Notes: a model not told the origin generated them from the sequence alone. Shown: positions 1,441-1,717, numbered from the stretch's first letter. The stretch is 56,018 nucleotides of DNA from Patescibacteria group bacterium (GCA_041671565.1 JBAZBH010000007.1:1-56018), one strand, 5' to 3'. Numbers and translations: made by a program.

Positions 1441-1682
1441 GACCTCACTACCGGCGGGCCGCAAATGATCTGGCTAAAAGCCAAGTGTGCCAGTTAACTG
1501 CTGATTCCTCTTTGCTGTCTTCTCGACAACCCCAATGATCAAGGAGATCAAAAATTAACTATCGGCAGCTGGGTAGTCGCTGGTTGAACCAAGGTTCGCG
1601 CAGACGGTGACACCCGGTGACTATGATTGACCCAGAACATAGGCAACCTATCCCCTAAAAAGGGCGCCGGATAGTGAAGCTC
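1441..1682 (-). ncRNA. unidentified structured ncRNA candidate (~242 nt)
   Basis: Ends pair (CTTCACTA-T-CCGGCG / CGCCGG-TAGTGAGG); many internal hairpins; promoter just upstream and TTTTT just downstream; no ORF of 60 aa or more in the track. Confidence 0.6.
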
Positions 1683-1688
1683 AATTTT

Positions 1689-1717
1689 ATTATATCACTT
1701 CTGGGAAAACTCGCCAA
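1689..1717 (-). promoter_or_regulatory. promoter for the ncRNA candidate
   Basis: TTGGCG-17 nt-TATAAT with extended -10 (TGATATAAT); predicted start at ~1682. Confidence 0.6.

Follow-up and report, generated by a model that had tools for sequence, protein, structure and literature searches.

The window analysed here, the whole stretch of 56,018 nucleotides (nt) from a Patescibacteria group bacterium (GCA_041671565.1 JBAZBH010000007.1:1-56018), carries close to its first letter a structured RNA of ~242 nt, which is most probably a divergent 6S RNA (SsrS, encoded by the ssrS gene) of the Patescibacteria, or Candidate Phyla Radiation (CPR), lying at a sequence distance that the Rfam model for 6S RNA cannot bridge directly. 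6S RNA, well known from bacteria and one of their few near-universal regulatory RNAs, holds RNA polymerase by posing as an open promoter. The kind of gene is ordinary and its form is unusual and diverged. The initial annotation of the locus had described an unassigned RNA with its own promoter, closing stem and U-tract, all of which are present and are supported by homologs and by covariation. Of the two identities it suggested, the divergent 6S RNA stands, as our core model and that of Rfam for 6S RNA single out the same genes in other classes of the phylum, and the new class falls.

The assignment is based on a chain of homologs that leads from the window to RNAs recognized by Rfam. A BLAST search of 60 relatives gave full-length or partial matches confined to the same taxonomic family, and the RNA is carried by five further genomes and two metagenome contigs. 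A loose DNA pattern run over genome and metagenome collections returned mostly chance matches, the only new true homologs being those on the contigs L100 and L145. A covariance model built from eight family sequences (R1) retrieved matches from other families of the class, full-length but weaker, with a TATAAT box just 5' and Us or a terminator 3' of the match, one false positive aside (L232, E = 0.046), which lies within a coding region and was rejected. A core model of 112 positions built from 16 sequences (R2) was then searched against class and phylum under the stricter filters of Infernal and detected the RNA in 59 of 401 class genomes, with one copy each, and in 108 of 401 phylum genomes, with a single match in all but one.

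Matching RF00013, the Rfam family for 6S RNA, was taken as the operational criterion of 6S membership, not as a biological definition. Searched against 331 phylum genomes, RF00013 gave 31 matches, of which 8 were above the gathering score. R2 and RF00013 coincide in locus and strand in 16 of the 16 phylum genomes they share, and in none do they match at differing places. Six of these shared matches are above the gathering score (G531:C17, G419:C25, G446:C80, G574:C1, G513:C29 and G501:C2) and ten are below it (G416, G562, G507, G511, G472, G685, G496, G418, G672 and G441); at G531:C17, for example, the R2 match spans 3838-3995 and the 6S match 3895-3948. When 20 R2 loci from other classes were scanned with cmscan, 6S was the sole family match at the R2 locus in four of them, in each case with the full model and at the same strand and place (E = 3e-4 to 0.013), and one of the four reached E = 1.2e-6 in a local search. 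The coincidence of the two models in all 16 shared genomes argues that the RNA of the window belongs to the 6S family.

Comparison of the consensus sequences points in the same direction. The class core derived from 27 sequences reads UGUUCURGG / ACAACCUUAUUUAAUG / GGGAGGCUCAUAU - stem - C-CGUG-G - stem - UUGCGGCCACCC / ACYUGGCUUUYAG / CYRGAAAC, and the Rfam 6S consensus reads ...CuGAgCC gAaaauuuuuauaaua GGGag...gcaCCCAC CUggaAcagCa GGuUCa.... The central bubble of the Rfam consensus has 16 nt in its 5' strand and 13 nt in its 3' strand, the same lengths as in the class core, and the bubble flanks GGGAG...CACCCACCUGG are common to both (GGGag...gcaCCCAC-CUgg in Rfam). GGGAG...CACCCAC is found in nearly all of the 27 class sequences, the window having the variant GGGUG...UACCC, and the 3' bubble strand, conserved as ACYUGGCUUUYAG in the class, is the counterpart of ACCUggaAcagCa in the Rfam consensus.

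The conserved and covarying structure of the RNA is, as predicted from the alignments and folds, a long rod made of a closing stem (P1a, P1b and P2), a large central bubble and a terminal arm (Table 1). Covariance models were used for the alignments because MAFFT misaligned the full-length RNAs in the terminal arm. As had been proposed, the first ~18 nt pair with the last ~16 nt before the T-tract: nt 3-18 of the RNA pair with nt 227-241 in the 15 base pairs (bp) of P1a, directly before UUUUU. In the alignment of the eight family sequences P1a is 92% paired with 4 pairs showing compensatory change, P1b is 96% paired with compensatory change in 6 of 6 pairs, and P2 is 95% paired; over the 27 class sequences 9 of the 9 P2 pairs covary, and GUUCURGG of its 5' strand ranks with the most conserved sequences. 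In the eight close homologs the 5' strand of the bubble has 15-17 nt, and every fold leaves it unpaired. P3 and the apical stem of the terminal arm reach 95-98% pairing, and across the class 12 of their 14 pairs show compensatory change. The internal helices named in the initial annotation, CTGGG..TAGTCAC/GCGACTA.CCCAG and CTGCCGAT/ATCAGCAG, can be drawn in the window and are not conserved in relatives. What the relatives conserve is P2 (AUGUUCUGG/CCAGAUCAU), P3, the apical stem and the base of an inserted domain.

Two lineage-specific insertions bring the window copy to 242 nt as compared to 110-165 nt in most relatives. The smaller one, hairpin P1.1, is carried by 5 of the 8 close homologs and missing from the short forms, and 3 of its 4 pairs are compensatory. 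The larger one is a structured domain of 80 nt in the 3' bubble strand, also carried by 5 of the 8; two other families have shorter insertions at this position. The base helices of the domain are 83-88% paired with one compensatory pair each.

The check for homologs and covariation proposed at the outset thus gave conserved relatives at both levels. In the family alignment 86% of the cells are paired and 27 of 56 pairs are compensatory, with a covariation score of 0.342 as against at most 0.106 when partners are slid by 1-3 columns, which leaves 31-45% pairing. In the class-core alignment pairing reaches 91% of the cells, 21 of 23 pairs show compensatory change, and the score is 0.668 as against at most 0.124 when slid, a wide margin even for an alignment which its fitting to the structure favours. 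In addition, minimum free energy (MFE) folds made independently for the eight homologs all give the same rod with a bubble and a terminal stem-loop. The homologs range from 152 to 263 nt in length, three of them being short and five, including the window, having both extra pieces.

A second pairing of the 3' bubble strand suggests a switch. The CCAG at 1470-1473 has two possible partners, the 5' CUGG, with which it forms helix P2, and UUGG of the 3' bubble strand, with which it forms the hairpin UUGGCU-UUU-AGCCAG; as both structures use this CCAG, they are mutually exclusive. A switch through CCCAG/CCAG had been suspected before; a switch there is, with partners other than those first named, namely CUGG of P2 or UUGG of the 3' bubble. 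Over the 27 class sequences the alternative hairpin is 91% paired, compared to 14-52% with slid partners, and compensatory change is seen in 3 of its 5 pairs, in an alignment that treats its columns as unpaired and hence is not fitted to this helix. A three-way change is seen in two relatives, in which CUGG/CCAG/UUGG of the window is replaced by CUAG/CUAG/CUAG. The potential to refold once P2 opens is therefore present in the predicted structure, and its actual use would follow by analogy. In E. coli-type 6S RNA, synthesis of a product RNA opens the downstream helix, and a hairpin formed by its 3' strand and the 3' bubble strand drives release (PMC8876501). By its position and partners the conserved alternative hairpin matches, as a putative counterpart, this release hairpin triggered by the product RNA.

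The RNA appears to form a transcription unit of its own on the minus strand, running from 1682 to 1441 and non-coding. As predicted, an extended -10 promoter with a start at ~1682 was found (TG-TATAAT, 1717-1689); it matches the consensus at 10 of 12 positions plus the TG, and places the probable transcription start at about G1682. A TATAAT box lies 6-8 nt 5' of the RNA start in all close homologs and in the class homologs inspected. The closing stem together with the U-tract forms an end resembling an intrinsic terminator, from which the 3' end is placed, presumably, at 1441; a terminator consensus scan did not list it because the scan needs a loop of 3-8 nt. The gene is located between a small open reading frame (ORF) and tRNA-Pro(GGG), and the ORF upstream has its own terminator on the minus strand (1809-1779, consensus scan), which makes the RNA a separate transcription unit. 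All eight sequences start with GAGCUUCACUAU 6-8 nt after the TATAAT box on the equivalent strand, and each closes with the complementary ...GUAGUGARG, after which come Us or a separate terminator hairpin; in G003 and G005 this hairpin after the closing stem takes the place of the U-tract end. The sole ORF within the RNA (1548-1646, 32 amino acids, TTG start) falls in regions with insertions and deletions among the homologs, and a small-peptide reading was rejected.

Table 1. Features of the putative 6S RNA locus, in window coordinates (all on the minus strand).
Feature	Position	Description
Promoter	1689..1717	sigma-70-type; -35 TTGGCG (1717-1712), 17-nt spacer, TG-extended -10 TGATATAAT (1697-1689)
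Mature 6S-type RNA (putative)	1441..1682	~242 nt; R1 and R2 match the same strand; single copy in the genome
P1a closing stem, 5' strand	1665..1680	GCUUCACUAUCCGGCG; pairs with 1442-1456; MFE fold
P1.1	1653..1664	small hairpin CCCU-UUUU-AGGG, a lineage-specific insertion that separates P1a from P1b
P1b, 5' strand	1643..1648	GGUUGC; pairs with GCGGCC at 1457-1462
P2 ('downstream helix'), 5' strand	1632..1640	AUGUUCUGG; pairs with 1465-1473
Central bubble, 5' strand	1616..1631	GUCAAUCAUAGUCACC, 16 nt
Terminal arm	1571..1615	P3, internal loop, apical stem GAAC/GUUC (4 bp) with CUUG loop
P3	1609-1615 with 1571-1578	GGG-U-GUC with GAC-UA-CCC
Linker	1568-1570	AGC
Inserted structured domain in 3' bubble strand	1488..1567	80 nt; base UGCC..AGUUAA / UUAACUGGCA (UUAACU GGCA)
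Conserved part of 3' bubble strand	1474..1487	CACUUGGCUUUUAG; ~13 conserved nt
Alternative 'release' hairpin	1470..1484	UUGGCU-UUU-AGCCAG; predicted -6.1 kcal/mol in isolation
P2, 3' strand	1465..1473	CCAGAUCAU
P1b (1457-1462) and P1a (1442-1456), 3' strands	1442..1462	fold and family alignment
U-tract	1436..1440	UUUUU directly after closing stem; read from sequence
tRNA-Pro(GGG)	1181..1255	185 nt downstream, same strand; ARAGORN and Rfam

Several points weigh against the 6S assignment. Rfam searched at the gathering threshold over the whole window gave no match at the RNA locus, and at E <= 10 over the region 1250-1900 it gave tRNAs and noise only, with no 6S. RF00013 had no match in the 7 family genomes at E <= 1, nor in the 35 class-homolog loci at E <= 10 or 5, so that membership is argued through a chain of homology between purpose-built models, without a direct match. 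R2 detects the RNA in only 15-27% of the sampled genomes under the strict filters, from which universality across the phylum does not follow. Because the covariation alignments were made to follow the structure in the model, their paired percentages come out too high, a concern softened by the slid controls and by the alternative hairpin, to which no alignment was fitted. The 80-nt domain, placed in the strand of the bubble that would be the equivalent of non-template DNA, has no counterpart in the Rfam 6S consensus, and we know of none of that size in 6S RNAs studied so far. The missing Rfam match of the window copy can be attributed to sequence drift and the two inserted domains. RNase P RNA (class A, RF00010) was found in 7 of 7 family genomes at 149-193 bits, and Rfam searches therefore work on these genomes. 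The Rfam check that had been proposed gave no match for the window itself, with six homologs exceeding the gathering score.

The RNA might also be read as a Patescibacteria-specific molecule with another job, perhaps sequestering or scaffolding some other protein and sharing only ancestry or shape with 6S RNA, which the clade of the window would have re-purposed after gaining the 80-nt domain. The want of a direct Rfam 6S match in the window and in the whole class, the large insert in a bubble strand, and the very strong conservation of two loops (C-CGUG-G at the apex and CUCAUAU/UUGCGG internally), which suggests a specific partner and for which we see no tie to known polymerase contacts, would all suit such a job. 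Against this, the window copy keeps the parts that 6S function needs (bubble flanks, bubble lengths and release hairpin), the homologs grade continuously into matches above the Rfam threshold, and the 7 family genomes hold no other 6S candidate at the RF00013 cutoff used for them. We consider a different job unlikely, and retain a divergent 6S RNA as the preferred identity of the RNA.

The neighbouring tRNA-Pro(GGG) gene has a promoter-like site of its own (1303-1275, promoter scan). Of 54 loci examined across the phylum, 27 have a tRNA-Pro(GGG) gene no further than ~1 kb from that for 6S RNA, and in 23 of these 27 it is downstream on the same strand, with a gap of sometimes only 14-35 nt. This arrangement raises the question whether the RNA could be a leader or processing element of the tRNA transcript, made as one precursor and controlling or accompanying tRNA maturation. 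The RNA of the window ends, however, in its closing stem and UUUUU, with the tRNA lying beyond and behind its own promoter-like site, and half of the homologous loci have no nearby tRNA-Pro. Moreover, the RNA appears to be homologous to 6S RNA. Co-transcription would explain how a 3' end is made and not replace a 6S function. A leader role is improbable.

Co-transcription of 6S RNA with tRNA-Pro, followed by processing by RNase P, is possible. Six of the 20 loci examined in other classes also have an RNase P RNA gene at a distance of less than 1.5 kb. As a rather speculative proposal, which we hold to be doubtful when its parts are taken jointly, the expanded 6S RNA in the clade of the window, with its covarying 80-nt domain in the non-template-like bubble strand, could alter the sigma or polymerase contact or recruit a factor, and 6S and tRNA-Pro(GGG) could form an ancient Patescibacteria unit in which a cut by RNase P makes the 6S 3' end in many lineages. 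If true, such an end would couple the level of a polymerase regulator to tRNA transcription and processing.

Some further features were observed around the gene. A long GC-rich hairpin, GUCCGCCUUCGUCCCGC-AAAA-UGCGGGACUACGGUGGAC, lies on the minus strand at 1300-1340, between the 6S terminator and the promoter-like site of tRNA-Pro, and a similar GC-rich palindrome is present just 3' of tRNA-Pro at about 1126-1160. The small ORF upstream of the 6S gene (1867-2172, minus strand) has a good ribosome-binding site before an internal ATG and contains a perfect tandem duplication (1976-2095) encoding MTGSTSTPTTTGA twice; its product is possibly a small Thr/Ser-rich secreted or repeat peptide. A tRNA-like gene at 2408-2481 (minus strand), which the Rfam tRNA model finds at 41.5 bits and ARAGORN passes over, has an 8-nt anticodon loop (CUCGGUAA) and a poorly pairing acceptor stem. 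Further tRNA-like genes with odd anticodon loops lie beside the 6S gene in related Patescibacteria contigs (ARAGORN 'anticodon' cc, gg, ttaa and ac), at L100 918-988, L145 1499-1653 and L230 1067-1140, and irregular tRNAs may be common in Patescibacteria.

The exclusion of tmRNA (transfer-messenger RNA), RNase P RNA and signal recognition particle (SRP) RNA in the initial annotation holds on all three counts. Neither ARAGORN nor Rfam reports a tmRNA in the window, and the 3' end of the RNA is a plain stem followed by Us; the sole ARAGORN tmRNA call in the genome (G000 C12 26524-26741) overlaps tRNA-Ala, has an implausible tag and looks spurious. RNase P RNA gives no match at the locus, and the copy of this genome is located at G000:C21:14634-15014. 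A diverged SRP (4.5S) RNA deserves mention as the small and large bacterial SRP models (RF00169 and RF01854) have no match in the 7 family genomes, and the RNA under study is a rod-shaped hairpin whose core is similar in size to SRP RNA. The models, however, find nothing at E <= 10 in the region 1250-1900 either, and the RNA lacks both a GNRA tetraloop at its apex and the AGCA/GGA loop motif, its apical loop being CUUG or CGUG. The SRP54-type GTPases (Ffh and FtsY; PF00448) are themselves missing in 7 of 7 family, 60 of 61 class and 300 of 301 phylum genomes, and a tblastn search of this genome with E. coli Ffh was negative. Many CPR bacteria lack SRP subunits (PMC8080830), and their absence here seems to be known biology and not an artefact of the tools, with its near totality in our sample still striking. 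As the homologs are moreover 6S RNAs by Rfam, an SRP RNA is hardly credible at this locus.

Folding energy cannot decide the strand, as the minus strand folds at -88.9 kcal/mol with z = -3.2 and the plus strand has z = -3.9, both against shuffled sequence. The initial annotation had left the orientation uncertain on account of internal G-U pairs favouring the plus strand, a doubt which the homologs remove: strand and ends are fixed because all eight sequences share the start, the position of the box and the complementary end, and the RNA lies on the minus strand. The comparable folding of the plus strand would suit a chance fold in an intergenic spacer with no gene at all, a notion with next to no probability that is refuted by compensatory changes from family to phylum, the fixed promoter position and one copy per genome.

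The following mechanism may be proposed for this divergent 6S RNA. By analogy with the mechanism established in E. coli and B. subtilis, the RNA, a rod whose bubble stands open, would mimic an open promoter and occupy the active-site cleft of the RNA polymerase carrying the housekeeping sigma factor, which would damp transcription in a starved cell. When nucleoside triphosphates return, the polymerase would take the 5' side of the bubble, together with that of P2, as the template for a short product RNA. This product would read roughly 5'-(U)GACCCAGAACAU-3' and start opposite the conserved (A/U)CA just after P2; its template region would be the conserved GUUCUGGGUCA, with the P2 5' strand templating most of it. 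With P2 unwound, the freed 3' strand CCAG... could pair with UUGG of the 3' bubble to form UUGGCU-UUU-AGCCAG, whereby the RNA would be released.

No paper that names 6S RNA along with the Candidate Phyla Radiation came up in a literature search, and only one that names it, in passing, along with Patescibacteria. The databases show a corresponding gap, Rfam being over threshold in 8 of 331 phylum genomes as compared to 108 of 401 for R2, and a better covariance model is gained for annotating ultra-small, mostly uncultured bacteria. Judged by analogy of function, organisms with genomes of ~1 Mb that have shed even SRP would still keep a polymerase-sequestering RNA. The insertion in a bubble strand and the conserved tRNA-Pro(GGG) neighbourhood are modest new features, which leave the kind of gene unchanged.

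Among known systems, E. coli SsrS (RF00013) has the same rod, bubble size, flanks and type of release hairpin, and is likewise a single-copy gene with its own strong promoter. The usual length of 6S RNA is ~185 nt, as compared to 242 nt here, which includes the 80-nt domain and the small hairpin of the closing arm. The release hairpin predicted here comprises 6 bp, that of E. coli 9 bp. In E. coli, ssrS is co-transcribed with ygfA; the neighbour of the gene in the window is instead tRNA-Pro(GGG).

B. subtilis 6S-1 RNA (bsrA) shares the overall architecture of the RNA of the window. At the junction of P2 and bubble, the 6S-1 template reads ...UGACCGAAC and the window ...GUUCUGGGUCAAUC at the equivalent place, and a G- or U-started, GC-rich product RNA is therefore plausible here. 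The free 6S-1 RNA has a small hairpin in its 3' bubble strand, which is a modest counterpart to the far larger inserted domain of the window. The product RNA of 6S-1 is 5'-GUUCGGUCA..., and 6S-1 is reported to use a 'central bubble collapse helix' and not an extended 3' hairpin (PMC8876501). In this respect the alternative pairing seen here is of the E. coli type, unlike that of 6S-1.

Ms1 RNA binds the core enzyme and has no sequence homology to 6S RNA; it was compared here by description only, whereas for the RNA of the window homology to 6S is supported through the models. Ms1 is a 6S-like rod of Actinobacteria that binds RNA polymerase (PMC9130861).

The short Patescibacteria 6S-type RNAs are direct homologs, mostly of 110-165 nt and without the insert. 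They have the core UGUUCURGG-ACAAC...GGGAG...C-CGUG-G...UGCGGNCACCCACYUGG and the same frequent neighbour, tRNA-Pro(GGG). The clade of the window has diverged from these short forms in its 5' bubble strand (GUCAAUC as compared to ACAAC), in its terminal arm, and by its two insertions.

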